A stretch of 64,000 bases of DNA from an uncultured Chloroflexia bacterium. GTDB lineage: Bacteria > Chloroflexota > Limnocylindria > Limnocylindrales > CSP1-4. The notes below the pieces were generated by a model. It had not been told where the DNA came from and ran no database searches. It saw only the letters and a list, made by a program, of their open reading frames with translations. Numbering within the stretch: the first letter of the stretch is position 1; each line of letters begins with the position of its first letter. Location of the stretch: assembly GCA_963718085.1 (NCBI GenBank), contig CAVQYA010000001.1:196811-260810 (forward strand), in the 5' to 3' direction. The position numbers were made by a program, and so were the translations under genes. This document shows, one piece after another, positions 28,016 through 47,191 of this stretch.

Positions 28016-28348
28016 ATGACGATGCACGCCGGCCTGGCGAGTGGCCGCTGGTGGACGCTCACGCTCGCCGAGCAGCTCGGCAACGCCGGGGCCGACGTCG
28101 GCCGCGCGATCCGGGCCAGGCGGGATGGCGACCAGGAGCGTTTCGACGCGGCCCTCGGTCGGGCGCTCGAGCTGCTCGACCTGACCCTCGCGGATCCGCG
28201 CTGGCGCGGCCCTCGCCTTCGCGAGATCGCGCGCACGCGGGAGGTCGTCTGCGACCTCCTGGTCGGGGACAACGTCTACGAGTCGACGCCCGAGTCGCTC
28301 GACGCCTACTTCCTCGCCTTCGCCATCGCGGCGCGACGCGACAGGTAG
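28016..28348 (+). CDS. Hypothetical protein (110 aa), convergent with abiEii-2
   Basis: ORF with ATG at 28016. No recognisable family. Confidence 0.35.
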   Translation: MTMHAGLASGRWWTLTLAEQLGNAGADVGRAIRARRDGDQERFDAALGRALELLDLTLADPRWRGPRLREIARTREVVCDLLVGDNVYESTPESLDAYFLAFAIAARRDR

Positions 28349-28397
28349 CGGGGGGCCCACTCTGGGCGCGCCAGGCCCCGACGTCCTCCTCGGCCGG

Positions 28398-29836: not shown

Positions 29837-29995
29837 GGCAGAAGTATAGCATTACGCGATACTATTGGCGACAACTCCTGCTTGCCGCGGCGGCCGTATC
29901 TCGAATTGGATCCGGTTGTTGGCCGGCAGCGATCGTCCGCGGTCGCGACGCCTTTCGGCGGGGCCACGATGCCCGCTCCGCTATCATCGAGGGCC

Positions 29996-30301
29996 ATGGG
30001 GACCCTCACCCGCGCCGATGTCGAGCATGTCGCGCACCTCGCCCGCCTCGGCCTGGCCGACGAGGAGCTGGCGCGCCTCGAGGGGCAGCTCAACCACATC
30101 CTCGAGCAGTACGAGATACTGGCGCGGCTCGACACGGACGCCATCCCGCCTACTGCCCAGACGATCGAACTGGAGAGCATCCTCCGCGAGGATGTCGCGC
30201 GGCCGTCGCTGAGCGTCGACGAGGCGCTCGCCAACGTGGCCGAGCGGTACGGCGACCACGTCGTGGTGCCCGCCATCCTCGGCGGCGAGCAGGCGAGCTG
30301 A
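29996..30301 (+). CDS. gatC: Glu-tRNA(Gln)/Asp-tRNA(Asn) amidotransferase subunit C
   Basis: LTRADVEHVAHLARLGL…EELARLEGQLNHILEQ is the GatC signature. Confidence 0.85.
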   Translation: MGTLTRADVEHVAHLARLGLADEELARLEGQLNHILEQYEILARLDTDAIPPTAQTIELESILREDVARPSLSVDEALANVAERYGDHVVVPAILGGEQAS

Positions 30302-30438
30302 CCGGTGGTCGATCGAAGCCTGACCCGCGCGCGCGCCGACGTCGCACGCCTCGCCCGCGTCGCGCGTGCGCGCGCTTGCGAGCCCATTGCACGCCTCGCC
30401 CGCCTCGCCCGCGTCGCCCGCGAGCACGGGGCCTGACC

Positions 30439-32029: not shown

Positions 32030-32030
32030 C

Positions 32031-33308
32031 ATGTCCGAGACGAACCGCCCGATCAGCCACGACCGCGGCCAGCTCTCCGACGCGCCTGGGTCCGCCCGCC
32101 CGCGGCTGGCCGAGCCCGTCCTCGCCGCCCGCCCGCCGCTGGCCGAGCGTGCCCTCTCCGCCCGGGTCCGGGCCGTCCCCCCGTCGGGCATCCGCCGCTT
32201 CTTCGACATCGCGGCCACGATGGAGGACGTCATCAGTCTCGGAGTGGGGGAGCCCGACTTCGCCACGCCGGCCCAGGTGATCGAGGCCGGTATCGCCAGC
32301 CTCCGCGCCGAGCGGACCCACTACACCAGCAACTACGGCACTATCGAGCTGCGCCGGGCGATCGCCGCCCACCTCGAGCGCCGCTACGGCGTCGCCTACG
32401 ACCCGACGACCGAGATCCTCGTCACCGTCGGCGCGTCGGAGGCCGTCGACCTCGCCCTGCGGGCCACGATCGACCCGGGCGACGAGGTCATCCTCCACGA
32501 GCCCTCGTACGTCGCCTACGTCCCGGCCGTCGTCTTCGCAGGGGGGACCGTCCGCCACGTCTCCACCCGCTTCGAGGACGACTTCGCCCTGGACCCCGCT
32601 GCGGTCGAGGCGGCGGTGACGCCGCGGACGAAGTCCCTCTTCCTCGGCTTCCCCTGCAACCCGACGGGCGCCGTCCTGCCGGTCGCGGCCCAGGACGAGC
32701 TCGCCGCGATCGCCGTCCGCCACGACCTCCTCGTCTACTCGGACGAGATCTACGACCGCCTCGCCTACGGCGGCTACCGCCACCGGGCGATGAGCGCGCT
32801 GCCCGGCATGCGCGAGCGGACGATCCTGATGGGCGGCTTCTCCAAGGCCTACGCGATGACCGGCTGGCGGGTCGGCTACGTCTGTGCCCCGGCCGGGATC
32901 CTCGAGGGGATCGTCAAGGTTCACCAGTACGGGATCATGTCGGCGCCGACCACCGCCCAGGACGCTGCTTTGGTGGCGATCACCGGCGCCGAGGCCGACG
33001 TTGAGTCGATGCGCGCCGAGTACGACCGCCGCCGGCGCCTGGTCGTCGACGGCCTCAACGCCCTGGGCCTCGCCACGTTCGAGCCGCGGGGCGCCTTCTA
33101 CGCCTTCCCCCGGATCACGTCCACCGGGCTCGACGACAACGCCTTCGTCGAGCGGCTGCTCACCGAGGAGCACGTGGCCGCGGTGCCGGGAAGCGCCTTC
33201 GGCCCGTCGGGCGCCGGGCACGTGCGGATGTGCTACGCGACGAGCTACGAGAAGCTCGAGGAGGCGTTGGGTCGGATCGGCCGTTTCGTGGCGCGGACGC
33301 GCGGGTAG
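32031..33308 (+). CDS. PLP-dependent class I/II aminotransferase (aspartate aminotransferase-like)
   Basis: …GFSKAYAMTGWRVGY… (Lys-PLP site) and overall AspAT-like collinearity. The ATG overlaps the gatA stop (TGACATG). Confidence 0.8.
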   Translation: MSETNRPISHDRGQLSDAPGSARPRLAEPVLAARPPLAERALSARVRAVPPSGIRRFFDIAATMEDVISLGVGEPDFATPAQVIEAGIASLRAERTHYTSNYGTIELRRAIAAHLERRYGVAYDPTTEILVTVGASEAVDLALRATIDPGDEVILHEPSYVAYVPAVVFAGGTVRHVSTRFEDDFALDPAAVEAAVTPRTKSLFLGFPCNPTGAVLPVAAQDELAAIAVRHDLLVYSDEIYDRLAYGGYRHRAMSALPGMRERTILMGGFSKAYAMTGWRVGYVCAPAGILEGIVKVHQYGIMSAPTTAQDAALVAITGAEADVESMRAEYDRRRRLVVDGLNALGLATFEPRGAFYAFPRITSTGLDDNAFVERLLTEEHVAAVPGSAFGPSGAGHVRMCYATSYEKLEEALGRIGRFVARTRG

Positions 33309-33659
33309 CGCAGGGGCCGCGTCGGCGCCCGGACGCGCGGGCAGCGCGGGAGCCACCACGGCGGCTGCCCCGCGGGGGTAACGCAGGTTGCTCCCACCGA
33401 CGGCCTCGTCGGTGAACGCCAATTCCAGCAGCACGCCTGCTCGGATTCGACTCCGCCGAGCTCACGGTTCCCGGCGAAACGCCGGTTCGGCGGGAAGTCC
33501 ACGCTCCGAGCGCGCAGCTTCGAGCAGACCGGCCGCTGAAGCCGGGCTTCGGCGTCCGGGCCCGCGCGTCAGTGAAGCGCCTTCCGACCGTGCCGCCCCG
33601 GATGGCGTTTGCGTCGAGGCTGGCGCGGAGGGCGCTGACTGAGGCTCGCCGTCGGCCGG

Positions 33660-34235
33660 ACCACGCGGGAGTAGCACCCGCCGCGTGATGACCGTGTGCG
33701 CATCGTCGGGGCATCAGCCAGGCATCTGGCTCGCCGTCGGCCGGACCACGCGGGAGCAGCACCCGCCGCGTGATGACCGTGTGCGCATCGTCGGGGCATC
33801 AGCCAGGCATCTGGCTCGGCGCCCTGCGGCGTGCCCGCCCTGCGGCGTGCCCGCCCTGCGGCGTGCCCGCCCTGCGGCGTGCCCGCCCTGCGGCGTGCCC
33901 GCCCTGCGGTGGGCCCGACGCGGTCACCGAGCAGCCCGACGGGATCGCTCAGGAACGCCCGCTGGATGCTTGATGCGCGCTTGATGCGGCCACGGTCATC
34001 AGTTGGGGGCAACGGTTCCCCGGTGGTCAGGGTCAAGCCCTGCCGGCACGACCATCCAGGGGCCACGGCGATTCGGGGGCCCGTGATTCTCACGCGGCGG
34101 GATGGCGCGCGTGCTCGGCGCGGCTCCGGCGCGGCTCCGGCGCGGCTGGCGCGCGGCTCGGCGCGGCTCCGGCGCGGCTCCGGCGCGGCTCCGGCGCGGC
34201 TCCGGCGCGGCTCCGGCGCCCTCGATCCTCCGGGC
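33660..34235. mobile_element. Complex palindromic MITE/REP-like element, family A locus 1, with internal 85-bp ×2, 15-bp ×6 and ~11-bp ×9 tandem arrays
   Basis: The left core GTGATGACCGTGTGCGCATCG(T/C)CGGGGCATCAGCC (×2) is the inverse complement of the right core GATGCGCGCTTGATGCGGCCACGGTCATCA. It shares GGTTCCCCGG…GTGATTCTCACGCGGCG with locus 2. Confidence 0.55.
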
Positions 34236-34237
34236 GG

Positions 34238-35161
34238 TCAGGTTCGGCCGTCCGGGTCGGGCGGGGCTGGACAGGCGATGGCTCTCTTGGCCCGGTACAT
34301 CGCCACGTCGGCGGCCTTGAGCAGCTCCTCCGCGTCGCGGCCGTCGTCGGGATACACGCCGACCCCGATGCTGACCGTCACCGTCGCGGCGCCGCCCGGC
34401 AGCGCGAACGGCTTGCCGACGGCGGCGCGGATCTTGTCGGCGAGCGCGATCGCGTCGGGGCCGGCCCGGAGCGACTCGAGGAGTATGACGAACTCGTCGC
34501 CGCCGATGCGGGCGACGGTGTCGGCCGCTCGAAGGTTCTGGGCGAGCCGCTCTGCGATCCCGCGGAGCACCAAATCACCGACGTCGTGTCCGCGCGAGTC
34601 GTTGATCCACTTGAAGCCGTCGAGGTCGATGAAGAGGATCGCGAAGCTCGTCCTGTATCGCGCCGCCCGGACCAGGAGCTGGTTCAGGCGATCGAACATG
34701 AGGAAGCGATTCGGCAGCCCGGTGAGCGTGTCGTGCGTGGCCAGGTGCTCCAGGGTGATCTCGGCCCGCTTCAGCTCGTTGATCTCCCGCGTGATGCCGA
34801 GAAGCCCAACGACCTTGCCCGCCGAGTCGTGTAGCGGCGTCTTGGTGGTGAGGGTCCAGTTCACCTGGCCGTTCTCGAGCTGGCGGCTCTCCGTCAGGCC
34901 GATGATCGGTAGATCCGTCTCCATGATTCTCAAGTCGTCCAGCATCGTTCTCTGGCCGAAGTCCTGGCCGAACAGCTCGATGTCGGTCTTGCCGACGAGC
35001 TCCGCCGGATCTGCGTAGCCAAGGTCCCGTGCCATCTTCCGGCTCACGCGCAGCAGCCGGCACTGACGATCCTTGAAGTAGATGCTGTCGACCAGCGTCT
35101 CCATCAGGGAACGGAAGAGGAAGTCATCGTCCAAGGAAACGGAAGGCGACATCGTGATCAC
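34238..35161 (-). CDS. PAS-GGDEF diguanylate cyclase
   Basis: RIGGDEFVILL GGDEF motif. An N-terminal PAS-like region is present. Confidence 0.85.
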   Translation of the reverse strand: MITMSPSVSLDDDFLFRSLMETLVDSIYFKDRQCRLLRVSRKMARDLGYADPAELVGKTDIELFGQDFGQRTMLDDLRIMETDLPIIGLTESRQLENGQVNWTLTTKTPLHDSAGKVVGLLGITREINELKRAEITLEHLATHDTLTGLPNRFLMFDRLNQLLVRAARYRTSFAILFIDLDGFKWINDSRGHDVGDLVLRGIAERLAQNLRAADTVARIGGDEFVILLESLRAGPDAIALADKIRAAVGKPFALPGGAATVTVSIGVGVYPDDGRDAEELLKAADVAMYRAKRAIACPAPPDPDGRT

Positions 35162-35317
35162 CCTCTGGTGGGCCTGGATCCTGGGCTCCCGTCGTTGCGT
35201 CCATGATGACCCTTCAGCCGCGGCATGTTGCGGCGTGGGCGTCTACCGCAGCGGCTGGGTCGAGGCGCGCCGCGCTGCAAGCCGGCCGGTGCGGCGGCAT
35301 CGCTCGGGACGTGCCGG

Positions 35318-36358
35318 TCAGGATCGCGACCGACCGAACTCGATGACCTCGGACAGGAATCCGTGGGCCATGCACGTCACGGTGTCGGCGCCGCCGTAGT
35401 AGATCGTCAGGCGATCGGTTTCGCGGTCGAGGAGGGCGGCGCAGGGGAAGACGACGTTCGGGACGTCGCCCACCTGCTCGTACGGCACCTGGGGGGAGAG
35501 CAGGTAGTCGCGCGGCCGCGAGAGGACCCGCCAGGGCTCCTCGAGATCGAGGAGAGCCGCGCCCATCGAGTAGACGAAGCCGTTGCACGACGTCAGGACG
35601 CCGTGGTAGAGCAGGAGCCAGCCCTGGTCGGTCTCGATCGGCGTCGGGCCCGCCCCGACCTTCGTCGAGTCCCAGCTCCACGGCCGCGGCGCCATGACGT
35701 GGCGATGGCGGCCCCAGTGGACGAGATCCGGGCTCTCCGAGAAGAAGATGTCGCCGAACGGCGTGTGCCCGTTGTCGCTGGGCCGATTGAGCATGGCGTA
35801 GGCGCCGCCGATCCGACGCGGGAACAGGACCCCATTGCGATTGAACGGCAGGAAGGCGTTGTCGAGCTGGTGGAACGTCTCGAAGTCGCGGGTCCAGGCG
35901 ATGCCGATCGTGGGGCCGTGGTAGCCGTTGCACCAGGTGACGTAGAAGCGGTCCTCGAGCCAGGTCACCCGCGGGTCGTAGGCGTGCTCGAAGGTGCCCT
36001 GGATCTCGGTCACCCGGCCCTCGGCGGCCCGGAACCTGATCGGCTCGGGGTCGATCTGCCAGGCGACCCCGTCGACGCTCCTGCCGACGTGAAGGTTCAT
36101 CGTGCGCGCGGTGTCGTCGACGCGGAAGACCCCCGCGAAGCCATCGCCGAAGCGGACGACGGCCGAGTTGAAGATCGAGTTGGAGCGCGGCAGGTGGTCG
36201 CGCCCGATGATCGGGTTGCGGCTCGAGCGCCACACGACGGCCGCACTGCCGGCCGGGCGGTCCTCCCACGGGATGGCGGCGGGTCCGCCGGGTCCGACGG
36301 CGGCGCTGCCGGTCGGGCGATCCTCCCACGGGATGGCGGCGGGTCCGACCTCGGTCAC
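35318..36358 (-). CDS. GH130-family glycoside phosphorylase/hydrolase (beta-mannoside type)
   Basis: …[35 protein letters not shown]… is the GH130 signature. GTG start at 36358 overlaps the GH1 stop (GTGA). A 51-bp tandem duplication sits at the 5' end (AAIPWEDRP(T/A)GSAAV ×2). Confidence 0.8.
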
Positions 36359-37722
36359 CGGGCGATCTCGCCGATCTCGCCGATCTCGCCCGTCCGGGCC
36401 ACCGCGGCCAGGTAGCGCCCGCTGTCGCGCACGCGGCGTTCCTGCGTCTCGAAGTCGACGTGCACGATCCCGAATCGCTGGGCGTAGCCCTCGGCCCACT
36501 CGAAGTTGTCCATCAGCGACCACACGAAATACCCCCGCAGCGGCACGCCGTGCTCGATCGCCGTCCGCGCGGCGGCGAAGTGGCGCCGCAGGAAGTCCAC
36601 CCGCGCCGGGTCACGCGTCGGATCGGCGGGATCGAGGTCGAACGCCGCCCCGTTCTCGTCGACGTAGAGCGGCAGGTCGCCGGTGCGCGAGGCAACGAGC
36701 TCGAGAATTCCGGTCAGCCCCTCCGGGTAGATCTCCCAGCCCATTCCGGTGGCCTCACGGTCGGGCCGGGGAGCGAGGGGCGGCAGGAGCGGCGAGCGCT
36801 CGAGGGTCCGGGTGTAGTAGTTGACGCCCATGAAGTCGAGCGGCGCGGCGATCGTCGCCATGTCGCCCGCCCGTACCTCGTCGCGCCGCCACCCGAGCGT
36901 GCGGACGGCGTCCTCGGGGTAGTCCCCGCCGGTCAGCGGGTCGAGGAACCAGCGGTTGTAGCGAGCGTGCGCGAGCGACGCCGCCTCGACGTCCAGGGGA
37001 TGCTCGCTCGCCGGGAGATGCGGCTCGAAGTTCAGGACGATCCCCGCCTGGAGCCGGGGAGCGGCGGAGCGAATGGCCTGCATGGCCGTCCCGTGGGCCA
37101 GCAGGAGGTGGTGGGCGGCGGCCAGCGCGGCCGCCGGATCGGTCCGGCCGGGAGCGTGGATCCCCAGGGCATAGCCGAGGTGCGATGAGCACCACGGCTC
37201 GTTCAGAGTGGCCAGCGTGGCCAGCCGGTCGCCAAGACGCCGGGCGACGACGTCCGCATAGCGGGCGAACGCCTCCGCGGTCGCCCGGACCGGCCAGCCG
37301 CCGGCGTCCTCGAGCGCCTGGGGGAGGTCCCAGTGGTAGAGGGTCGCGTGTGGCTCGATCCCGCGCTCGAGGAGGGCGTCGACGAGCCGGTCGTAGAAGT
37401 CGAGGCCGGCCTCGTTCACCGCGCCGCTGCCGACCGGCAGGATCCGCGGCCAGGCGATGGAGAAGCGGTAGGCGTCGAGGCCCAGCTCCGCGATCAGGGC
37501 GATGTCGTCCCGGAACCGGTGGTAGTGGTCGCAGGCGACGTCGCCGCTGTCACCGTCGCGGATACGGCCGGGCGTGTGCGAGAAGCGGTCCCAGATGCTC
37601 TCGCCGCGTCCGTCCTCGTGCGTCGCGCCCTCGATCTGGTAGGACGACGTCGAGGCTCCCCATGTGAAGCCGGGGGGGAATCCTGGGCTGGACACGGCGC
37701 GCTCCTTTGGAACCGCTCTCAT
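36355..37722 (-). CDS. GH1 beta-glucosidase / beta-mannosidase
   Basis: [18 protein letters not shown], and YVDENG…ITENG-like catalytic Glu motifs. The C-terminal [11 protein letters not shown] comes from a 9-bp ×3 repeat. The start is uncertain, either 37722 or 37764. Confidence 0.85.
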
Positions 37723-37845
37723 CTTGAACGTGGACTGTGGCGACATTCTACACGCCACAAGCACCTGTTGATAACCCTCTTGACACCAATTCGCAACCGG
37801 ATATGCTGGAAGCGCTTTCAGTCAGGTCATTCCACGAGGTGCAGT

Positions 37846-38796
37846 TTGGCACGCACGCTCGACGACGTGGCGACCCTCAGCGGCGTCTCGAGGGCAACCG
37901 TCTCCCGGGTCATCAACGGTGGCCCCGTCGCGGAGGCGACGCGTCAGAAGGTGGTCGCGGTCCTCGAGGAGACCAGCTTCCGGCCCAACGCCGCCGCCCG
38001 CACCCTGGCGTCGGGGCGCTCCGGCGTGGTCGGGGTCGTGATGCACGTCGATCCCCACTTCCTCTTCCGGGACCCGTACTTCACGCAGCTGCTCCAGGGA
38101 CTCAGCGACGCCCTCGCCGAGCAGGAGATCGGGATGATGCTGTGGCTGGGGCATCGCTCCAAGGAGGAGACCCTCGAGCGGATCCAGTCGATCGGCCTCC
38201 TCGACGGCGTCGTCGTGACCGCCCATACCCTCGACGACCCGCTCGTCGACGGCCTCCTCGCCTCGCCGCTGCCGACCGTGCTCATCGGCCACCGGCGCGC
38301 GGACCGCAAGGCCAGCTACGTCGACGTCGATCACGTCCACGCCGCCGACGCGGTGACCTCGCACCTTGCGTCGATCGGGCGCCGGCGGATCGGCCACGTG
38401 ACGGGGACGCGGGGGACCGTCGCGGCCGAGGACCGCATCGAAGGCTACCGGCGGGCCATGCACCGCGCCGGGCTCAGGACCACCGGTCTCGTCGTCGACG
38501 GCGACTTCAACCGCGCGACCGGCATGGCCGGCGCCGCGACGCTCCTCGACGCCGGGGCCGACGCGATCTTCTGCGCCAACGACGCGATGGCGGCGGGGGC
38601 CCTCGAGACGATCCACGCCCGGGATCTCCGGGTGCCGGAGGACGTCGCCCTCGCCGGCTTCGACGACCTCGATTTCTCGGCGCTCCTCGACCCGCCCCTC
38701 ACGACCGTCCGCCAGGGCGTTCGGGAGCAGGGCGCCGAGGCGGCGCATGCGCTCCTCCAGCTCGTGAACGACCCCGACGGGGGCCCCGCCGCGTGA
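37846..38796 (+). CDS. LacI-family transcriptional regulator
   Basis: …TLDDVATLSGVSRATVSRVING is the HTH, followed by a periplasmic-binding-like sugar domain. TTG start inferred. Confidence 0.75.
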   Translation: MARTLDDVATLSGVSRATVSRVINGGPVAEATRQKVVAVLEETSFRPNAAARTLASGRSGVVGVVMHVDPHFLFRDPYFTQLLQGLSDALAEQEIGMMLWLGHRSKEETLERIQSIGLLDGVVVTAHTLDDPLVDGLLASPLPTVLIGHRRADRKASYVDVDHVHAADAVTSHLASIGRRRIGHVTGTRGTVAAEDRIEGYRRAMHRAGLRTTGLVVDGDFNRATGMAGAATLLDAGADAIFCANDAMAAGALETIHARDLRVPEDVALAGFDDLDFSALLDPPLTTVRQGVREQGAEAAHALLQLVNDPDGGPAA

Positions 38797-38916
38797 TCCT
38801 GCCGACGGAGCTGGTCATCCGGCAGTCGACCGTGGGAGGTGTGCCGCGCGCGTGATCGGCGTTCAGTTCGTCCACGACGGTGGAAGGTTGTTGCGAGGAC
38901 AAGGAGGAGATCAGGG

Positions 38917-40692
38917 ATGACAAGAACTCAGCGGCTGCTCGCCGTGCTCGCGGTCGTGAGCCTGGCGACGGCGGCATGCTCGACGGGGGCGTCGCCGACG
39001 CCCGCGCCATCGGCTGGGGCGACCGCGGCCCCGACCGCGGCCCCCACGGCCGCCCCGACGCCGGCCCCGACCCAGGCGACCACCGAGAGCTACCCGCGGG
39101 CGGAGACGCTCTACACGACGGGCAAGCAGTGGGGTCCGCCCTCGACGTGGAACCCGCTCGACCCGAACTCCGCGATGGGCGTGGTCGGCCTCCAGTACGA
39201 GACGCTCTTCCTCTTCGACCCGCTGGCCGACAAGTTCGAGCCATGGCTGGCCGAGAGCGCGTCGTGGACCACCCCGACCGAGTACACGATCAAGGTCCGC
39301 TCGGGCATCAAGTGGAGTGACGGCCAGCCGCTGACCGCCGCCGACGTGGCCTTCACGATCGGCCTGGCGAAGATCAAGGTCGTCGGTTCCAACATCTGGA
39401 CCTACGTGACGGACGCGACGGCGACGGACGACACGACCGTCGTCGTGAAGTTCAAGGACCCGGCCTACCAGCAGTGGGCTCTCTGGACGTACAACAGCCC
39501 GATCGTGCCCAAGCACGTCTGGGAAGCCAAGGCCAACGAGGACATCCTCAAGGACACCAACGCCAACGGCGTCGGATCCGGCCCCTACATGTACAAGACG
39601 GCGGCCGAGGACCGGATGGTCTGGATCCGCAACGAGAACTGGTGGGCCAAGAGCGCCCTCGGCCTCGAGGCCAAGCCGAAGTACATCGTCGACATCGTCA
39701 ACGGCGCGAACAACGTCGCGCTCGGTCGCCTGATGCAGGGCGACTTCGACCTCAGCAACAACTTCCTGCCGGGCGTCGCGACGCTGGTCGACAAGGGCTA
39801 CGTCTCGACCTACTACAAGACGGCCCCCTACATGCTGTCGGCGAACACGGCCTGGCTCGTCACCAACGACCAGAAGGCGCCGCTCGACGACAAGGAGTTC
39901 CGCAGGGCGATCGCGTGGGCGGTCAACGTCCCGGACATCGTCAACAAGGTCTACGGCAACATCGTCAAGGCCGCCGACCCCACGGGCCTCCTCCCGAGCT
40001 GGGACAAGTACATCGACGCCGCCCAGCGCGACGCGCTCGGCTTCAAGTACGACCCCGCCAAGGCCAAGCAGATCCTCGACGCCGCCGGCTACAAGAAGGG
40101 CGGCGACGGGTTCTACACCGCCAAGGACGGAGCGGCGATCAAGCTCACGATCATGGTTCCCAGCGGCTGGTCCGACTGGGAGGCTGCCCGTGACGTGATC
40201 GTCTCCAGCCTGAAGGCCGTCGGCATCAACACCGAGGCCAAGGTCGTCGACTACAACGGCCTGGTCGCAGCCCGGAACGCGGGCGACTTCGACCTGGTCC
40301 TCAACAACGAAGTCCAGATCTCCAACTCGCCCTGGACCTACTACGACTACATCTTCCGCCAGCCGCTGATGTCCGCCGAGGGCAGGAACCGGAACTTCGG
40401 CGGCTACGAGAACCCGGCCGCCTGGGCCCTCGTGCAGCAGCTGGACAAGACGCCCGTCGAGGACGCCGCGGCGCAGAAGGCGATCACGTCCAAGCTCCAG
40501 AAGGTCTTCCTCGAGGACCTCCCGGTCATCCCGCTGTGGTACAACGGGCTCTGGTCGCAGGTCAGCAACGTCGTCTGGACGAACTGGCCGTCGGACGAGG
40601 GCGCGCACATCCTCCCCGCCACCTGGAACGGCTACTGGCAGATGGGCGCCATCAAGATGCTCACCAACCTCCAGCCGGTCCCGGCCCAGTAA
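38917..40692 (+). CDS. ABC transporter substrate-binding lipoprotein, family 5 (oligopeptide/oligosaccharide type)
   Basis: ATG 38917 with AAGGAGG upstream. Signal peptide plus lipobox LATAAC. Overall SBP_bac_5 architecture. Confidence 0.8.
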   Translation: MTRTQRLLAVLAVVSLATAACSTGASPTPAPSAGATAAPTAAPTAAPTPAPTQATTESYPRAETLYTTGKQWGPPSTWNPLDPNSAMGVVGLQYETLFLFDPLADKFEPWLAESASWTTPTEYTIKVRSGIKWSDGQPLTAADVAFTIGLAKIKVVGSNIWTYVTDATATDDTTVVVKFKDPAYQQWALWTYNSPIVPKHVWEAKANEDILKDTNANGVGSGPYMYKTAAEDRMVWIRNENWWAKSALGLEAKPKYIVDIVNGANNVALGRLMQGDFDLSNNFLPGVATLVDKGYVSTYYKTAPYMLSANTAWLVTNDQKAPLDDKEFRRAIAWAVNVPDIVNKVYGNIVKAADPTGLLPSWDKYIDAAQRDALGFKYDPAKAKQILDAAGYKKGGDGFYTAKDGAAIKLTIMVPSGWSDWEAARDVIVSSLKAVGINTEAKVVDYNGLVAARNAGDFDLVLNNEVQISNSPWTYYDYIFRQPLMSAEGRNRNFGGYENPAAWALVQQLDKTPVEDAAAQKAITSKLQKVFLEDLPVIPLWYNGLWSQVSNVVWTNWPSDEGAHILPATWNGYWQMGAIKMLTNLQPVPAQ

Positions 40693-40779
40693 GCTCGGCC
40701 ATGTGACCCCTCCTCCCGCCCGGCGGGAGGAGGGGTATTCCATCAGCGCCACCGGGGCCGGGGGCGATCGGGAGACCGC

Positions 40780-41772
40780 GTGCGACGCTACTTCGGGCGG
40801 AAGCTCTTCATCTACCTGCTGACCTTCTGGGTCGCGGCGACGATCGACTGGATGATCCCGCGGTTCATGCCGGGCGATCCCATCCAGAGCCTGCTGTCGC
40901 GGACGCAGGTGGCCCCGGAGGCGGTCGGCGCCCTCATCGCCTACTACCGGGATCTCTTCGGCCTGGACCAGTCGATCCCCCAGCAGTACCTCAACTTCTG
41001 GGCTGCCCTCGCCCACGGGGACCTGGGGCGCAGCGTCTACCTCTCCGGCCGGCCGGTGGTCGACGTGATCATGGCCGCCCTGCCGTACACCCTGGCCCTC
41101 CTGATCCCGGCGATCCTTCTCAGCTGGTGGGCCGGGAACAAGGCCGGGGCGATCGCGGCCCGCCGGCGCGTGCTCGACAACACGGTCCTGCCGGTGGGCT
41201 ACATCCTCACGGCGACCCCGTACATGTGGCTGGCGATCATGCTGGCCTGGATCTTCGCCTCGCTCCTGGGCATCTTCCCGATCTCCGGTGGCTACAGCTA
41301 CTCGCTGGAGCCCTCGCTCAGCTGGACCTTCATCGGCGACCTCGCCGCGCACTGGGTCCTGCCGTTCGCCTCGCTCTTCCTCGTGATGTTCGGCGGCTGG
41401 GCGATCGGGATGCGGAACATGATCATCTACGAGCTCGACGCGGACTACTCGCGCTACCTGAACGCGCTGGGGGCGCCGACCAGCCTCGTCCGCAGGTACG
41501 CCTTCCGGAACGCGGTGCTGCCCCAGGTCACCGGCCTCGCCCTCCAGCTGGGCGTAATCGTCTCCGGGGCGCTCGTGACCGAGATCGTCTTCTCGTATCC
41601 GGGCATCGGCAAGCTGCTCCTGGCGGCCGTCCAGAACCAGGATTACTTCCTCCTGCAGGGCATCTTCCTGTTCATCATCATCGGCGTCCTCATCGCCAAC
41701 TTCGCCGTCGACATCGCCTACGTCCTCATCGACCCGCGGACGCGGGTCGGGATGCGCGGGGGCACGGCATGA
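40780..41772 (+). CDS. ABC transporter permease (DppB/OppB-like)
   Basis: BPD_transp_1 topology with conserved EAA-like loop. Confidence 0.8.
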   Translation: MRRYFGRKLFIYLLTFWVAATIDWMIPRFMPGDPIQSLLSRTQVAPEAVGALIAYYRDLFGLDQSIPQQYLNFWAALAHGDLGRSVYLSGRPVVDVIMAALPYTLALLIPAILLSWWAGNKAGAIAARRRVLDNTVLPVGYILTATPYMWLAIMLAWIFASLLGIFPISGGYSYSLEPSLSWTFIGDLAAHWVLPFASLFLVMFGGWAIGMRNMIIYELDADYSRYLNALGAPTSLVRRYAFRNAVLPQVTGLALQLGVIVSGALVTEIVFSYPGIGKLLLAAVQNQDYFLLQGIFLFIIIGVLIANFAVDIAYVLIDPRTRVGMRGGTA

Positions 41773-42677
41773 CCGGACCCCTGCCGGCGGATGCCGTGGC
41801 GCCGCTCGATCGTCCCGCCTCGGAGTCGGTCGGCCGCGCGCGGGAGATCCGGTACTTCGCGCTGCGCAGCAAGAAGGTGCTCGGCGCCTCGTTCGTGCTG
41901 TTCGTGCTGCTCGCCATCGCCGTGGTGGGACCCTTCCTGCGACCCGGGGACCCCAACGCGTTCGTTGGTCCGCTCGGGGCTCCCCCTTCTGCGGAGTACT
42001 GGTTCGGGACGACGACCTTCGGCCAGGACGTCTTCGCCCAGTTCGCCAACGGCCTGGTCGCCACCTTCGTGGTCGGGATCCTGGGCGGCGGAGTGGCGGC
42101 CCTCATCGGCATGGTCGTCGGGTTCGTGGCGGGATACCGGGGCGGCGTGGTCGACGAGATCCTCAACATGCTCACCAACGTGGTCCTCGTGATCCCGACC
42201 CTGGCCATCCTCATCGTCGTGACGGCGTACCTGCAGGCCCGCGGCCTGATCCTCGAGGCCGCCTTCATCGGCCTGACCTCGTGGCCGTGGGCGGCGCGGG
42301 CCATCCGGGCCCAGACGTTCTCGCTCAAGACGCGGGAGTTCGTGGATCTCGCCCGGATCAGCGGCGCGTCCAGCCTCCGGGTCGTCTTCCGCGAGATCGC
42401 CCCGAACATGAGCTCCTACCTCTTCATGACCTTCATCCTGCTGTTCGGCGGGGCCATCCTCATCGCTGCATCGCTCGACTTCATCGGGCTGGGCCCCACG
42501 GAGGGCACCTCGCTCGGCCTGATGATGTACAACGCCGTCGCCTGGAGCGCGCTGCAGCTCGAGATGTGGTGGTGGTTCATCCCGCCCGGGATCGGGATCA
42601 CCGCGATCGTCGGCGCCCTCTACGTCATGAACGTGGGGCTCGACGAGATCTTCAACCCCCGGCTGCGGGAATCCTGA
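41768..42677 (+). CDS. ABC transporter permease (DppC/OppC-like)
   Basis: ATG overlaps the upstream stop (ATGA). Typical DppC N-terminus and permease core. Confidence 0.8.
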
Positions 42678-42678
42678 G

Positions 42679-43629
42679 GTGAGCCTCGAGGTCGCGGACC
42701 TGCGGGTCTACTACCGGACGCTGGCGGGCGACGTGAGGGCGCTCGACGGGGTCACCTTCGACGTGGCCGACGGCGAGATCATGGGGCTGGCCGGTGAATC
42801 CGGGTGCGGCAAGTCCACCCTCGGCAACAGCCTGGTCCGCATCGACGGCCGGATGCGCTACGTCGAAGGTCGGGTCGTCCTCGACGGCGTCGAGCTCCCG
42901 ATCACGGACAGCCGGGCGATGGACCGCTTCCGCTTCAGCGACATCTCGATCATCCCCCAGTACGCGATGAGCGCCCTGAACCCCACCCGCAAGATCGGGA
43001 AGATGGTCGCCGAGCTGGTCGAGTCGCGGGGCACCCCGTTCCGGGAAGTGCGGGACGAGCTGTCGCGGCGCCTTCAGCTCGTCGGGCTCGGCACGGACGT
43101 GCTCGACCGCTACCCGATCGAGCTATCCGGGGGCATGAAGCAGCGGGTGGTGATGGTCATCTCCACGCTTCGCGACCCGTCGCTGCTGATCGCCGACGAG
43201 ATCACGTCCGCCCTCGACGTGTCGAGCCAGAAGGCCGTGGCCCAGACGCTCGTCGAGTTCCGTGACCGGGGGTTCGTGACGAGCATGATCGTGGTCACCC
43301 ACGACGTCTCGATCCTCTACCAGATCGCCGACACGCTCACCGTCATGTACGCCGGCAAGCTCGCCGAGAAGGCACCCACCGACGTGATGATGGGGGCGCC
43401 GCTCCACCCCTACACGCGCCTCCTGGTCTCGTCGCTGCCCGAGATCGGAGTCCGCTTCGAGGAGAAGCGCCTGGCGGGCATCCCGGGCGCCCCGCCCTCG
43501 CTCCTGAACCCGCCCGCCGGCTGCCGGTTCCGGGATCGCTGTCCGCTCGCCTTCGAGAAGTGCGGCGAGGAACCTCCATTCGTGGAAGTGGAAGCGGGCC
43601 ACGCCGTGGCGTGCTGGAAGGCGACCTGA
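42679..43629 (+). CDS. ABC transporter ATP-binding protein (DppD-like)
   Basis: Walker A GESGCGKST, signature LSGGMKQR. C-terminal oligopeptide-type extension. Confidence 0.85.
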   Translation: MSLEVADLRVYYRTLAGDVRALDGVTFDVADGEIMGLAGESGCGKSTLGNSLVRIDGRMRYVEGRVVLDGVELPITDSRAMDRFRFSDISIIPQYAMSALNPTRKIGKMVAELVESRGTPFREVRDELSRRLQLVGLGTDVLDRYPIELSGGMKQRVVMVISTLRDPSLLIADEITSALDVSSQKAVAQTLVEFRDRGFVTSMIVVTHDVSILYQIADTLTVMYAGKLAEKAPTDVMMGAPLHPYTRLLVSSLPEIGVRFEEKRLAGIPGAPPSLLNPPAGCRFRDRCPLAFEKCGEEPPFVEVEAGHAVACWKAT

Positions 43630-43630
43630 G

Positions 43631-44596
43631 ATGCTGACGCTGGACCGGGTGAGCAAGAGCTACCGTGTCGGGCTGTTCGGCGGCTCCGAGCTCCGGGCCG
43701 TGCAGGACGTCTCCTTCGGGATCCAGCCGGGCGAGGTCGTCTCGCTGATCGGCGAGAGCGGCAGCGGCAAGTCGACGATCGGCAAGATGATCCTGCGGCT
43801 CCTCACGGTCAACGGGGGCACGATCACCGTAGACGGCGTCGACATCGCCGGCCTGGGCGGCGCCGGCCTGCGGGCGTACTACCGGTCCGTGCAGGGCGTC
43901 TTCCAGGATCCCTTCAGCTCCTGCAACCCGATCTTCAAGGTCGACCACCTCTTCAGCCTCCTGCGCGACGTCTACTTCGGCGGACTCGGCGAGGCGGAGT
44001 GGCGGACCCGGCAGGCCGCGGCCCTGGTCGCGGTGAACCTCGAGCCCGGCCAGGTCCTCCACAAGTTCCCGCACCAGCTGAGCGGCGGCCAGCTGCAGCG
44101 GCTCCTCATCGCGCGGGCGCTCCTCCTCGAGACGCAGTACCTCGTGGCCGACGAGATCATCAGCATGCTCGACGCCTCGACGCGGATCGACGTGCTCAAT
44201 CTCCTGGGCGATCTCAAGGCTCGCGGCCTGGGCATCCTGTTCATCACCCACGACCTGTCGCTCGGCAACTACATCAGCGCGCGAACGGTGATCCTCCGTC
44301 GCGGCCGGATCGTCGAGATGGGCGCGACGGCCAAGGTCTTCGGCAACCCGCTCCATCCGTACACGAAGATGCTCCTGGCCTCCGTGCCGCACCTCCACGA
44401 CCGCTGGGGGAAGGAGGGCGAGGTCGCGGCCGCCTGGGCGGCCGCCGCCACGGCGTCGGCGGCTGGACCATGCCTCTACCATGCCGCGTTCCCCTCCGGC
44501 GACGAGCGGCCGGGCGACGACCGTCCGGCCCTGGCGACGATCGAACCTGATCACCTCGTCGGCTGCTGCCGTGCGGAGGGCGAGGGCGCCTGCTGA
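43631..44596 (+). CDS. ABC transporter ATP-binding protein (DppF-like)
   Basis: Walker A GESGSGKST, signature LSGGQLQR. Confidence 0.85.
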   Translation: MLTLDRVSKSYRVGLFGGSELRAVQDVSFGIQPGEVVSLIGESGSGKSTIGKMILRLLTVNGGTITVDGVDIAGLGGAGLRAYYRSVQGVFQDPFSSCNPIFKVDHLFSLLRDVYFGGLGEAEWRTRQAAALVAVNLEPGQVLHKFPHQLSGGQLQRLLIARALLLETQYLVADEIISMLDASTRIDVLNLLGDLKARGLGILFITHDLSLGNYISARTVILRRGRIVEMGATAKVFGNPLHPYTKMLLASVPHLHDRWGKEGEVAAAWAAAATASAAGPCLYHAAFPSGDERPGDDRPALATIEPDHLVGCCRAEGEGAC

Positions 44597-44739
44597 TTTC
44601 CTGGGCCGGCCGCCCGGTCTCCTCCACGGGCGGCCGGCCCGCTCCCTCGGCCTGGACCGCGCCCCCAGCCGGCTCGCTCCCTCGGCCGGCGGGCGGCCGA
44701 TCGAGCGGCGCTGACACTGTTGGACGACGCGGCCTCGGC

Positions 44740-45135
44740 CTCGTCATGTGATGACCGTGTGCGCATCGCCGGGGCATCAGCCGGGCAACGGGCCGCCGAC
44801 CGGCCGGGCGACGCGGCCCTCGGCCTCGTCATGTGATGACCGTGTGCGCATCGCCGGGGCATCAGCCGGGCAACGGGCCGCCGACCGGCCGGGCGACGCG
44901 GCCCTCGGCCTCGTCATGTGATGACCGTGTGCGCATCGCCAGGGCATCAGCCGGGCATGTGCACGTACACTTCTGGCGGCATGCCCGACGCCGTCGCCGA
45001 GCGGACCGTCGCCGTCGCCGAGCAGCGCGCGTCGCTGGACGCCTGATGCGCGCTTGATGCGGACACGGTCATCACCTTTGGCCGGGGTTCCCCGGGAGCC
45101 ATGGCCATTCGGGGCCGTGATCCTCACGCGGCGCG
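44740..45135. mobile_element. Complex palindromic MITE/REP-like element, family A locus 2 (85-bp unit ×~2.6 plus inverted right core)
   Basis: CGTCATGTGATGACCGTGTGCGCATCGCCGGGGCATCAGCCGGG units. Right end CCTGATGCGCGCTTGATGCGGACACGGTCATCAC … GTGATCCTCACGCGGCG. It lies immediately upstream of gatB. Confidence 0.55.
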
Positions 45136-45682
45136 CACGGGTTGTCCCCGGACGGCAGATCGTGGCTGCGCGGGCAGGGCCGCGATCCCTATGCCACACT
45201 CCCGCCCATGGGTGTCCTGCTCGTGACCTGCGGATTCGTGCTGACCGGCGTGGGCTCCTGGTCCGGCTATCGGAATGCGCGGGACGCGGTGACCCCGGCC
45301 GTCCACGACGGCGACCCGACGCGCTCGGCGATCGACGGCGCCCGGCCGCTCCTTGCCCGGCGCGCAGCGCGCCGGTTCGCACGCTCGCTGGCCGTCGCGG
45401 CCGTCTGGCTCGCCCTCGCCCTGTACGGGGTCTTCCTCGTCTCGGCCGGCACGATCCTGGGCGGGCACCCGTGAGCGCCACGCTCAACGCCCTCGAGCGG
45501 CGCGGCGGACATGGACGGGCACGACTGGCACGATCCTGGGCGGGCACGCGTTGAGCGCGGCGGCCCTGGGCGGGCACGAGCCAGGGCGGGCACGCGTGAG
45601 CGCCGCGACGCCGGCCGTGCGCGGGTGAGCGCCGCGACCCCGGCCGTGCACGCATGAGCGCCACGCCCCCGGCCGTGCACGC

Positions 45683-47191
45683 ATGAGCGCCGCGACCCCC
45701 GCCCTCGAGCGCTACGAGGCGGTCATCGGCATCGAGGTCCACTGCCAGGTCCGGACCGCGAGCAAGATGTTCTGCGCCTGCGCCGTGCCGCCGACCGACG
45801 CTGCCCCGAACACCCACACCTGCCCGGTCTGCCTGGCCCTGCCGGGCGTCCTGCCCACGATCAACCGCGCGGCGGTCGAGCACGTCCTCACGACCGGCCT
45901 CGCCATCGGGGCGACGGTGCCGGCCGCCACCCGCTGGGACCGCAAGAACTACTTCTACCCGGACCTGCCCAAGGGCTACCAGATCAGCCAGTACGACCTG
46001 CCCCTGGCCTCGAACGGCTCGCTCACGGTGGACACGTCCGAGGGACCCGTCCGGATCGGGATCACCCGCGCCCACCTCGAGGAGGACACGGCAAAGCTCG
46101 TCCACGCTGCCGGCCCCGACGGGCGCCGGGTGAGCCTGGTCGACTTCAACCGCGCCGGCGTGCCGCTCATGGAGATCGTCACCGAGCCCGACATCCGGAC
46201 CGCAGAGCAGGCCCGCCGCTACGCGGAGGAGCTGCGGCTCCTGCTGCGGACCATCGACGTCTCCGACGCCGAGATGGAGAACGGGCAGATGCGGGTCGAG
46301 GCGAACGTCTCGCTCCGGCCTCGGGGGACGGAGCCGTTCGGCATCCGGACCGAGGTCAAGAACATGAACTCGCTGCGGGCGGTAGAGCGCGCGATTGCCT
46401 TCGAGATCGAGCGCCAGGCGGCCGCCCTCGACGCCGGCGAGACGCTTCGCCAGGAGACGCGCGGCTGGGACGACGGCGCCGGGGCGACCTACGTCATGCG
46501 GGTCAAGGAATCCTCGGACGACTACCGCTACTTCCCCGAGCCCGACCTGCCGCCGCTCCACCTGGACCCGGAGTGGCTGGACGCGCTGCGGGCCGCGCTC
46601 CCGGAGCTGCCGGCGGCCCGCCGGGCGCGCTACGTGGGCGAGCTCGGCCTCTCCCCGTACGACGCCGCCGTGCTGACCAGTGACGAGGCGATGAGACGCG
46701 CCTTCGAGGCGATTCGCGCGGCCGGTCCCGCCCTGCCCGCGAAGGACGTCGCGAACCTGGTGACCGGCGACTACGGCCGGGCCCTGAAGGAAACCGCGGC
46801 GCGAAACGCTGCCGGCCTCGCCGGTCGCGCCGACGCCGCGTCGCTTGCCCACGTGCTCGGCGAGGTGCTCGCCGGGCGGCTCTCGCGGCCGAACGCGAAG
46901 GAGGTCGTGGCCGAGCACGTCGCCGGCGGTGCCGCGGCGCCCGGGATCATCGCCGCCCGGGGCTTCGCCCAGATCTCGGACGCGAGCGCCGTGCGTCGCC
47001 TCGTGGCCGAGGCGATCGTGGCGAACCCGGCCGCCGTCGAGGACTACCGAGCCGGCAAGTCCCAGGCAGTCGGCTTCCTCGTGGGCCAGGTGATGAAGGC
47101 GTCGCGCGGCCGGGCCAACGCGGCGCTCGTGCAGGCGGCCCTCCGGGAGCGGCTGGGGCCGCCGGCGCCGGCCGACGAGGGTCCCCGGTGA
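45683..47191 (+). CDS. gatB: Amidotransferase subunit B
   Basis: …ERYEAVIGIEVHCQVRTASKMFC… and full-length GatB collinearity. Confidence 0.9.
   Translation: MSAATPALERYEAVIGIEVHCQVRTASKMFCACAVPPTDAAPNTHTCPVCLALPGVLPTINRAAVEHVLTTGLAIGATVPAATRWDRKNYFYPDLPKGYQISQYDLPLASNGSLTVDTSEGPVRIGITRAHLEEDTAKLVHAAGPDGRRVSLVDFNRAGVPLMEIVTEPDIRTAEQARRYAEELRLLLRTIDVSDAEMENGQMRVEANVSLRPRGTEPFGIRTEVKNMNSLRAVERAIAFEIERQAAALDAGETLRQETRGWDDGAGATYVMRVKESSDDYRYFPEPDLPPLHLDPEWLDALRAALPELPAARRARYVGELGLSPYDAAVLTSDEAMRRAFEAIRAAGPALPAKDVANLVTGDYGRALKETAARNAAGLAGRADAASLAHVLGEVLAGRLSRPNAKEVVAEHVAGGAAAPGIIAARGFAQISDASAVRRLVAEAIVANPAAVEDYRAGKSQAVGFLVGQVMKASRGRANAALVQAALRERLGPPAPADEGPR

Follow-up and report, generated by a model that had tools for sequence, protein, structure and literature searches.

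Palindromic repeats at both edges of a sugar cassette that splits a Chloroflexota gatCAB operon belong to a dispersed, MITE-like intergenic family

In the 64,000-nucleotide stretch of DNA analyzed here (the window), from an uncultured Chloroflexia bacterium, gatC and gatA are separated from gatB by a block of about 11 kb, and copies of one complex repeat lie at both edges of that block. The question is whether the repeats brought the block in or settled there afterward. An earlier note on this DNA had taken the first view, reading the block as a self-contained insertion mediated or marked by MITE-like elements. The organism, a member of the Chloroflexota rather than an actinobacterium, has a GC content of 71.5%. 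The best matches of its GatB are 91% identical, and the few named ones are mostly "Chloroflexi bacterium" or "Ca. Limnocylindrales."

The genes at the locus are listed in Table 1. Pfam searches identified the amidase/GatA, class I/II aminotransferase, PAS-GGDEF, GH1, SBP_bac_5, both permeases, both ATPases, and GatB, while GH130, LacI, and GatC were identified by tblastn with the annotated orthologs of relative L190; the cassette content given previously was thereby confirmed. The placement of gatB directly after the right repeat had to be corrected, as a conserved membrane ORF of 88 amino acids and a stuttered copy of the junction between this small ORF and gatB intervene. Apparent frameshifts occur in gatA (near 31540), ligA, and LacI, and GC-rich tandem arrays are numerous in the window.

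Table 1. Window coordinates of the two operon halves, the inserted genes, and the parts of the repeat copies
Feature	Position	Strand	Remarks
Upstream operon half	29996-33308	+	gatC 29996-30298, gatA 30439-32023, aminotransferase gene to 33308
Left copy, 85-bp tandem units (x2.1)	33643-33818	+	98-99% identical; each carries GTGATGACCGTGTGCGCATCGTCGGGGCATCAGCC; forward arms 33687-33715, 33772-33800
Left copy, loop array (16 bp x6.1)	33820-33917	+	CGCCCTGCGGCGTGCC
Left copy, distal loop segment	33918-33967	+	68% identity to right-copy loop
Left copy, inverted arm, type B	33972-34000 (about 33968-34003)	-	Minus strand reads GATGACCGTGGCCGCATCAAGCGCGCATC
Left copy, B-side outer flank/post-arm module	34001-34100	+	AGTTGGGGGCAACGGTTCCCCGG ... 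GTGATTCTCACGCGGCG
11-bp array (x10.4)	34107-34219	+	GCGCGGCTCCG; abuts left copy, just before PAS-GGDEF stop codon
PAS-GGDEF gene	34238-35161	-	Left cassette edge; by gene order, added in the window lineage only
Conserved sugar cassette	35327-44596		GH130(-), GH1(-), LacI(+), SBP_bac_5, 2 permeases, 2 ATPases(+)
Ancestral GC-rich hairpin after ATPase gene, terminator-like	44603-44640	+	Also in L190, L116, L118
Right copy, 85-bp tandem units (x2.8)	44725-44957	+	Forward arms at 44750, 44835, 44920
Right copy, loop	44958-45044	+	
Right copy, inverted arm	45045-45073 (45033-45075)	-	77-81% complementary
Right copy, post-arm module	45074-45135	+	CCGGGGTTCCCCGG mini-palindrome ... GTGATCCTCACGCGGCG
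Downstream operon half	45208-47191	+	Small ORF 45208-45474, stuttered junction 45443-45720, gatB 45683-47191

The two repeat loci, at 33643-34235 and 44725-45135, are indeed copies of one composite element in the same orientation, built as described before from 85-bp units with a common core of about 40 nt, an inverted copy of that core at the right end, and a post-arm module. A 21-nt core occurs in the window five times exactly in forward orientation and once inverted (≤3 mismatches), against 0 occurrences in 100 shuffles. An arm profile scan of the whole 64 kb found seven arms, all within these two loci. Forward arms number two in the left copy, where each 85-bp unit consists of an outer flank plus the arm, and three in the right copy. 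The stretch GGTTCCCCGG...GTGATTCTCACGCGGCG extends to 34100 on the left and GGTTCCCCGG...GTGATCCTCACGCGGCG to 45135 on the right; past the right copy the ancestral spacer resumes at CGCACGGGT, and the hairpin after the last ATPase gene is its left limit. The short-period arrays reported earlier are real, with a period of 16 rather than 15 bp in one and 10.4 rather than about 9 units of 11 bp in the other, and they accompany the left copy but not the right; other family members have comparable short tandem repeats in their loops. Between the two copies the arms are 86 to 93% identical, whereas the unit flanks and loops are only 49 to 68% identical. The copies are probably old paralogs of one repeat family.

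Comparison with relatives bears on the order of events. In L187, L188, and L189, gatC, gatA, the aminotransferase gene, the small ORF, and gatB are contiguous, with overlapping stop and start codons. Since these relatives keep the operon intact, the sugar cassette must have been inserted, splitting gatCA from gatB, and on gene order the block is a genuine accessory insertion into an ancestral, translationally coupled operon. That part of the earlier account stands. The PAS-GGDEF gene, which it had counted as part of one cassette, is by the same comparison a further addition, found in the window lineage only; at its position L116 and L191 have a GH94 gene. The gene order of the cassette proper is common to the window, L116, L117, and L190, and fragmented versions occur in L118 and L191.

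The repeats have a different distribution. In L190 the GH130-GH1-LacI-ABC cassette occupies the identical position, yet its two junction spacers, 4 and 85 bp long, contain no repeat, and L116 and L117 have no element between the last ATPase gene and the small ORF; the junction spacers of these three relatives (4, 85, 58, and 206 bp) are all repeat free. An arm scan of about 134 kb of relatives' loci, covering both intact-operon and cassette-bearing relatives, found no arms, and the single element that might have been expected at the junction in the cassette-free relatives is absent from L187 to L189. Because cassette-bearing relatives have such spacers without repeats, the repeats probably neither mediated nor mark the cassette insertion but colonized intergenic gaps later. 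This is the very observation that the earlier note had named as counting against its proposal. The sugar cassette would already have been in place between the aminotransferase gene and the small ORF, and the two intergenic gaps opened by its insertion would later have taken up the repeat copies. We regard it as very improbable that the elements are the ends of a MITE-bounded composite mobile unit, having mediated the 11-kb insertion between gatA and gatB or remaining as its scars. Two homologous copies in direct orientation exactly at both cassette edges, around a cassette that is truly inserted relative to L187 to L189, are what such a unit would look like, but the same-site cassettes of L190, L116, and L117 carry no element, the left element lies outside the extra PAS-GGDEF gene that those relatives lack, and there is no transposase in the window or adjoining the copies examined. 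Moreover, the copies are not fresh ends of one event because they have diverged outside the arms. It is striking that within the 64 kb no copy occurs except at the two cassette edges; we tentatively attribute this placement to the long intergenic gaps that were available there or to copying at short range.

Beyond the window, GATGMCCGTGKSCGCATCNNNNGSGCATC, a signature of 29 nt, is matched exactly on 68 metagenome contigs (JGI metagenomes) and at both arms of locus L079 of a Chloroflexota metagenome-assembled genome, the latter representing one Chloroflexota genome; no match was found on viral contigs. After de-duplication, the metagenome contigs contain 31 distinct paired loci, a count made across contigs. 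The repeats are thus dispersed and MITE-like, as had been suspected, and form a real, lineage-restricted family of palindromic intergenic repeats. It appears to be undescribed, a polar two-arm repeat of uncultured high-GC Chloroflexota (Limnocylindria-like). Each member has two nonidentical 29-nt arms in inverted orientation, types A and B, of the form GATGC-N8-GCATC-N6-GCATC. The type-A end is a flank of about 25 nt followed by the arm GATGCCCcTGTCCGCATCaCGgGgGCATC, and the inverted type-B end is the arm GATGCCCGTGGCCGCATCAaGCGCGCATC followed by a flank of about 30 nt. All pairs with both arms typable are A plus inverted B, never A-A or B-B. Arms are frequently multiplied in tandem, the extra typable arms being same-type duplications, and strains can differ in arm number at a given locus. 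Conservation extends into the outer flanks and is gradually lost 25 to 30 nt outside the arms. The loop, of 45 to 160 nt, varies between loci and often contains short tandem repeats, in several of which GCATC recurs every 11 nt. All members are intergenic, 50 to 190 nt from genes in tandem, convergent, or divergent arrangement, and their neighbors are unrelated core genes (for example, uvrB and uvrA, MeaB and 3-HCDH, or isocitrate dehydrogenase). No credible ORF was found in the short members.

This recurrence bears on the possibility that the repeats reflect local low complexity or are an artifact of a GC-rich, indel-prone long-read assembly, to which the frameshifts and many GC-rich tandem arrays in the window might point. 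The same arms, flanks, and tandem-arm architectures recur on the 68 contigs, which come from a separate collection, and arms recur at six loci described below; together with the absence of core matches in the shuffles, this leaves that explanation with practically no chance, and for the arms we reject it. The exact unit counts (2 versus 3) could be assembly dependent.

A second possibility is that the elements are classical MITEs, nonautonomous derivatives of a DDE-type insertion sequence mobilized in trans via their terminal inverted repeats and without a host function. They are small, noncoding, and intergenic, end in inverted 29-nt arms with partly complementary outer flanks, are present or absent between close relatives, and differ in arm number between strains. 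However, comparison of the right copy with the empty sites of L190, L116, L117, and L118 revealed no recognizable target-site duplication, and none was evident at the ends of family members, although fuzzy boundaries could hide a short one. Loops are unrelated between loci, so that the length-wise similarity of true MITE copies is missing, and no autonomous parent insertion sequence was found. The arms are consistently of two different types, viral contigs carry no copy, and the sole gene-carrying copies encode, in a conserved chromosomal neighborhood, not a transposase but a helix-turn-helix (HTH) protein, whose link to the repeats would have to be coincidental. We therefore consider a classical MITE rather unlikely.

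The palindrome itself could act in RNA if transcripts of the upstream operons folded it into a long hairpin, which might stabilize the 3' untranslated region, terminate transcription (intrinsically or as a roadblock), or be processed by RNase. For the right copy the hairpin is thermodynamically plausible (DNA dG, -77.9 kcal/mol; z = -3.8), which is a point against the explanation we favor. Both window copies are downstream of operons, the right one after the ancestral terminator-like hairpin. Eight of nine distinct codirectional loci read A to B along transcription (P of about 0.04), and an RNA function or single-strand (replication-linked) insertion would account for this bias more naturally than duplex binding. 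Folding, which the earlier note had suggested examining, gave the left copy no more stability than shuffled sequence has (z = -0.9), and single arms likewise fold like shuffled sequence (z from -1.1 to +1.1). Arm-arm covariation is absent (204 matches observed versus 199.6 ± 5.9 with shuffled partners), and the mismatches between A and B arms are conserved. Elements also occur between divergent genes, T-tract terminators were not found, and Rfam gave no match over the whole window at gathering thresholds and only chance-level miRNA matches at an E value of ≤1 over both repeat loci. A structured RNA is, in our judgment, quite unlikely. Because the arms do not covary, they look like putative protein-binding sites rather than a selected stem, and they appear to be under selective constraint. 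Each arm would be a candidate site comprising a GATGC-N8-GCATC dyad and a third GCATC one helical turn off, kept for sequence-specific binding and not for base pairing.

A candidate ligand is suggested by the gene-carrying copies. In six of six distinct genomes, a pair of arms brackets a small XRE-type HTH gene, the forward one 55 to 160 nt upstream and the inverted one 18 to 93 nt downstream, with HTH identity down to about 60%. The protein, of 107 to 124 amino acids, matches solely HTH_31, HTH_19, and HTH_3 in Pfam, and a PDB profile search matches it to HigA, HipB, C-protein, and 434-type HTH proteins; neither search gave a Y1_Tnp/HUH transposase match. The neighborhood is conserved as sortase-HTH-nuclease/helicase. 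A TM0106-type RecB-like nuclease/SF1 helicase gene adjoins the HTH gene in five of the six genomes, and on three contigs an element follows the nuclease/helicase gene. The polarity of the HTH locus is opposite to the prevailing A-to-B order along transcription. This lineage-specific, single-copy HTH gene would encode the likeliest arm ligand. By analogy with REPIN-RAYT, the repeats and the gene might even form a vertically inherited partnership built on another protein, in which the HTH protein recognizes the A and B arms and the nuclease/helicase could copy or maintain the elements, but we hold this stronger version to be unlikely. The bracketing could merely reflect two insertions at one favored locus, or an RNA-level role.

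On balance, we favor with moderate confidence the explanation that the copies are old, paralogous members of a family of the REPIN/BIME/MITE kind, that is, noncoding, polar, palindromic intergenic repeats, that settled here after the cassette insertion, with arms that are putative protein-binding sites. This confidence applies to the explanation as a whole. Tandem arm units and loop arrays would have arisen by slippage or unequal exchange. Because the copies are direct repeats about 11 kb apart, they could now permit recombinational loss of the cassette; the repeats and the fast-changing arrays are likely hotspots of such loss, of assembly errors, and of strain-level length polymorphism. The split of gatCAB is thus explained by the older sugar-cassette insertion, the repeats being later settlers and not its cause. 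Of wider interest is the family, whose arms behave like conserved putative protein-binding sites and always bracket the small HTH gene. If the HTH-arm link is functional, it would extend the REP/RAYT idea of a resident gene with dispersed cognate repeats to a nontransposase DNA-binding protein and would give a way into studying how genomes are structured or genes regulated in a phylum of which little is known. If the partnership proved true, Chloroflexota would have a domesticated repeat system of a new class.

Among known systems, an integron attC or gene-cassette array was rejected: inspection found no GTTRRRY-type core in the A or B consensus, copies are single between core genes (such as uvrB and uvrA), and no integrase occurs in the scanned window ORFs. 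A composite transposon likewise has two homologous elements in direct orientation around an accessory gene block, but the flanking copies here are noncoding and diverged, and the cassettes of L190, L116, and L117 are element free; we reject it, and the element-cassette association is secondary. Correia elements of Neisseria and ERIC are MITE-type elements, 100 to 400 bp, noncoding, and palindromic, and true MITE copies are normally alike over their full length. The present family shares the noncoding palindrome, inverted ends, intergenic location, presence/absence polymorphism, and a potential effect on neighboring expression. It differs in that no target duplication, conserved interior, cognate insertion sequence, or transposase was found and in that its arms appear selectively constrained. 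The BIMEs of enterobacteria are protein-binding platforms (IHF and gyrase) and, like the present elements, are mosaics in which palindromic units, alternating or directly oriented, cluster together with other short motifs between genes of unrelated function. They are unrelated in sequence to the present family, whose arms are longer (29 nt plus a flank of 25 to 30 nt) and whose long loops abound in short tandem repeats; protein binding, known for BIMEs, is here predicted from sequence. Another close comparison is with the REPIN or REP-RAYT systems (REPtrons) and the related TIRtrons (PMC3116915; PMC3337134; PMC3733652). A REP unit is an imperfect palindrome of 20 to 40 nt tagged GTAG or CGTC (PMC3733652), whereas neither arm consensus, A or B, has such a tag, an arm by itself makes no convincing hairpin, the two arm types are consistently different with highly variable spacers, and the product of the bracketed gene is a small HTH protein of the XRE type that lacks the HUH/Y1 transposase motif. 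What the two have in common is a short repeat arranged in intergenic, spacer-separated inverted doublets at many loci, tandem and mosaic multiplications, restriction to one lineage, and a single-copy, syntenically conserved chromosomal gene bracketed by the dispersed repeats' own kind.

The best relatives of the window GatB come from uncultured Chloroflexota and share at most 91% identity with it; few are named, mostly as Chloroflexi or Ca. Limnocylindrales. Three relatives, at loci L187, L188, and L189, encode GatB proteins 80 to 86% identical to that of the window and carry gatC-gatA-aminotransferase-(small ORF)-gatB contiguously, with overlapping stop and start codons. This arrangement is the ancestral operon, and its intact state in these three relatives means that the sugar block of the window has genuinely been inserted, between the aminotransferase gene and the small ORF. 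The view of the earlier note that an accessory block of ∼11 kb splits gatCAB is thus upheld, and the gene content given there was borne out by Pfam and by tblastn with annotated orthologs. The same block, comprising GH130, GH1, LacI, SBP_bac_5, two permeases, and two ATPases, stands at the same position in five relatives, and is fragmented in two of them (L118 and L191). An extra GH94 gene lies at the left cassette edge of L191 and L116, where the window has a PAS-GGDEF gene; in the 334 nt that separate the aminotransferase gene from the left repeat locus, a tblastx search for leftover GH94 sequence gave compositional noise only.

The palindromic repeats at the two cassette edges of the window had been thought to mediate or mark this insertion, an idea that fails on three cassette-bearing relatives without the repeat. 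In L190, the left junction is 4 bp from the aminotransferase stop to the GH130 stop and the right junction is 85 bp from the last ATPase gene to the small ORF; the right junction is 206 bp in L116 and 58 bp in L117. The repeats thus have no causal or marker role. A relaxed pattern scan and an arm profile together found no repeat arms in ∼134 kb of eight relative loci. Because the cassette occurs in relatives without the elements, it is older than they are; the elements were gained later, in the window lineage, within the two intergenic gaps. On the right, the inserted material lies between an ancestral post-ATPase hairpin (44603 to 44640, then ...CTCCCTC) and an ancestral CGCACGGGT...TGCCACACTC spacer; no target-site duplication was recognizable at this junction, and alignment of filled with empty sites gave no clean boundary. 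No tRNA gene came up in a tRNA scan, which rules out tRNA-linked integration.

The two composite loci themselves are seen in the sequence as described earlier, with minor corrections. The first short array has a period of 16 bp rather than 15 bp, the two short arrays occur in the left copy only, and gatB does not directly follow the right element, as an 88-amino-acid (88-aa) ORF (45208 to 45474) and a stuttered small-ORF/gatB junction (45443 to 45720) intervene. A 21-nt core occurs in the window five times as an exact forward match and once in inverted form, compared with no match in 100 shuffles, and a family-arm profile scan of the 64 kb gave exactly seven arms, each of them in one of the two copies. 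Other readings of the repeats were set aside. An ORF of 42 codons passes through the final unit of the right copy, but on inspection the left copy does not keep the frame, and the unit length of 85 bp is not divisible by 3. A CRISPR-like reading, with 40 conserved and 45 variable nucleotides, is contradicted by "spacers" that are identical within a locus, which makes the 85-bp units tandem duplications. Rfam gave no matches at gathering thresholds in the window and nothing beyond chance-level miRNA matches at an E value of ≤1 in both repeat loci. The genome GC content is 71.5%, and scans for sigma-70 promoters and intrinsic terminators, uninformative at 71% GC, gave no match.

Features of the two repeat loci and of the block between ligA and gatC (window positions)
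Feature	Position	Remark
Left copy, 85-bp units ×2	33643-33818	units 98 to 99% identical
Left copy, 16-bp ×6 array	33820-33917	after 85-bp units, before short unique segment
Left copy, inverted arm	∼33968-34003	after short unique segment
Left copy, post-arm module	to 34100	GGTTCCCCGG at start, GTGATTCTCACGCGGCG at end
11-bp ×10 array	34107-34219	ends 18 nt before PAS-GGDEF stop
Right copy, 85-bp units ×2.8	44725-44957	then loop
Right copy, inverted arm	45033-45075	77 to 81% complementary to each forward arm
Right copy, post-arm module	to 45135	same module as that of left copy
PMT_2 glycosyltransferase	19537-20889	
AbiEii toxin-like genes ×2	22602-23426; 28398-29852, minus strand	
AAA_14/DUF4143 ATPase	23843-25318	minus strand

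Several further irregularities were seen in this neighborhood. In L116 and L117, the small ORF and gatB are translationally coupled through a clean GTGA overlap. The corresponding junction of the window is tandemly stuttered, with 16- and 29-bp periods in ∼4 to 5 diverged copies; a start-like motif, (G/A)TGAGCGCC, is retained in each copy, and the copies together place gatB ∼210 nt from the small ORF. Repeats of the GGGCGGGCACG type at 45561 to 45613, upstream of gatB and derived from the small-ORF 3′ end, match the reverse complement of the left-loop 16-bp array at ∼75% over 53 nt; either an inverted copy or a GC-rich coincidence could explain the likeness. Apparent frameshifts split gatA (∼31540) into two frames and ligA (13771 to 16585) into four pieces and affect the LacI C terminus (∼38790). 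Breaks of this kind in essential genes point more to an indel-prone (long-read) assembly than to pseudogenes, and similar gene fragmentation occurs in L118, L191, and the HTH-gene locus L195. Compared with its L190 ortholog, ligA also carries a Pro/Ala/Glu-rich low-complexity insertion of ∼190 aa after about residue 130 (14160 to 14733). Directly upstream of ligA is a second complex repeat region (13179 to 13752), in which 194-bp units (×2.1, 99% identical) run into a 38-bp ×5.7 array, unrelated in sequence to the palindromic repeat family. The ligA and gatC genes are adjacent in L189 and L190 and 13.4 kb apart in the window (∼16600 to 29990), where the intervening block is a second accessory insertion. 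It contains repeats ∼4.2 kb apart (21192 to 21491 and 25392 to 25691, 98% identical).

The proposal of a dispersed, MITE-like repeat family was confirmed outside the window. A first scan of reference genomes with a 19-nt degenerate core gave at least 115 loci, mostly chance matches, and among the matches listed only L079, from a Chloroflexota metagenome-assembled genome (MAG), extended beyond the 19-nt pattern. A 29-nt signature, GATGMCCGTGKSCGCATCNNNNGSGCATC, built from four arm variants and with a chance expectation of ∼0, was found on 68 metagenome contigs, mostly from one metagenome set (contig names Ga03152xx), and on no viral contigs; de-duplication left 31 distinct paired loci. A typical member consists of ∼25 nt of conserved outer flank, a 29-nt arm, a loop, an inverted arm, and ∼30 nt of flank. 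The loops are 45 to 160 nt long, unrelated between loci, and frequently contain short tandem repeats, several with 11-nt periods containing GCATC. Two arm types recur, each with its own flank, A (GATGCCCcTGTCCGCATCaCGgGgGCATC) and B (GATGCCCGTGGCCGCATCAaGCGCGCATC), and every pair with both arms typable combines A with inverted B; extra arms, where typable, are same-type tandem copies (AAB′, AB′B′, BBA′). The GGTTCCCCGG module of the window corresponds, in variant form, to the B-side flank of three metagenome loci (L119, L123, and L182). Members are intergenic, 50 to 190 nt from genes, in every gene-orientation context. Their neighbors are core genes such as uvrB and uvrA, MeaB and 3-hydroxyacyl-CoA dehydrogenase, cytidine deaminase and isocitrate dehydrogenase, glycogen synthase and phosphorylase, ArgRS, and Dak1. 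These are functionally unrelated, which rules out a regulon-specific operator and makes the family a generic intergenic repeat. The uvrB/uvrA element was seen at the same locus in three samples (L137, L149, and L162) in near-identical form, so copies can be stable across populations.

The palindromic layout raises the question of whether the arms act as a stem or as protein-binding sites. A long hairpin is possible for the right copy (DNA ΔG of −77.9 kcal/mol, z = −3.8); for the left copy, the predicted fold does not surpass that of shuffled sequence (z = −0.9), and single arms form no significant hairpin. Arm-arm covariation was absent at the variable positions of 42 unique pairs, with 204 matches observed versus 199.6 ± 5.9 with arms of different elements; the observed number was reached in 513 of 2,000 shuffles. 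Fixed differences separate the A arms from the B arms, which leaves conserved mismatches in a putative stem. Between the window copies, the arms are 86 to 93% identical and the unit flanks and loops 49 to 68%. Together, these results favor arms kept as sequence motifs, each a GATGC-N8-GCATC dyad with a third GCATC 11 nt further on. Such dyad geometry is typical of the sites of dimeric HTH proteins (XRE-type operators), and the family arms may be sites of this kind. The elements run from A to B along transcription in eight of nine distinct co-directional loci, the right window copy included (P ∼ 0.04); this bias would fit an RNA role or strand-specific insertion and counts against a purely duplex-binding view.

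A candidate for a protein that binds the arms as sequence motifs comes from the family itself. In L079, the inverted arms are 552 nt apart and flank a small ORF, and there and in the metagenome loci L161/L178 the long "loop" encodes an XRE-type HTH protein of 113 to 124 aa, 74% identical between them. The protein family is small (30 clusters), and its members share a conserved WINDGPAWD tail at the C terminus. They are similar to HigA, HipB, C-protein, and 434-type DNA binders and lack HUH/Y1 and DDE features. Four further genome groups carry the gene, three of them in a conserved sortase-HTH-nuclease/helicase neighborhood, in which the last protein (1,204 to 1,257 aa) joins a TM0106 RecB-like nuclease to an SF1 helicase and is followed by DUF4328 in L194 and L195; in L192, the neighbors differ. 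The HTH gene is bracketed in all six distinct genomes, at HTH identities down to ∼60%, by a forward arm 55 to 160 nt upstream and an inverted arm 18 to 93 nt downstream. PADLOC and NCBIfam placed the HTH protein and the nuclease/helicase in no known defense system, with partial helicase-domain matches only. Elements also lie immediately downstream of the TM0106-type nuclease/helicase gene, the one next after the HTH gene, in L120, L176, and L177; L161 and L176 share one contig, so that in that genome the HTH-helicase pair has elements on both sides.

RAYT genes are bracketed by their REPs, in REPtrons, or by TIRs, in TIRtrons (PMC3733652; PMC3116915; PMC3337134). The same signature is seen here at an HTH gene, with the difference that the bracketed gene is not a transposase, and because of this combination we regard the HTH protein, by analogy, as the putative cognate arm-binding protein. 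The family differs from REP-RAYT systems in that the GTAG/CGTC tag is absent, the arms do not form hairpins, and a Y1 transposase is missing. It differs from classical MITEs in that the interior is not conserved and a parent IS was not found; a target duplication was not recognizable at the element ends, whose boundaries are fuzzy enough to hide a short one. It likewise fails the defining tests of composite transposons and of integron attC sites. Literature searches brought up no account of repeats of this kind in Limnocylindria or Chloroflexi. In the way it works, the family is like REPIN-, BIME-, and MITE-type repeats, and the wider interest lies less in the cassette than in this apparently undescribed repeat family, which is invariably associated with an HTH gene.
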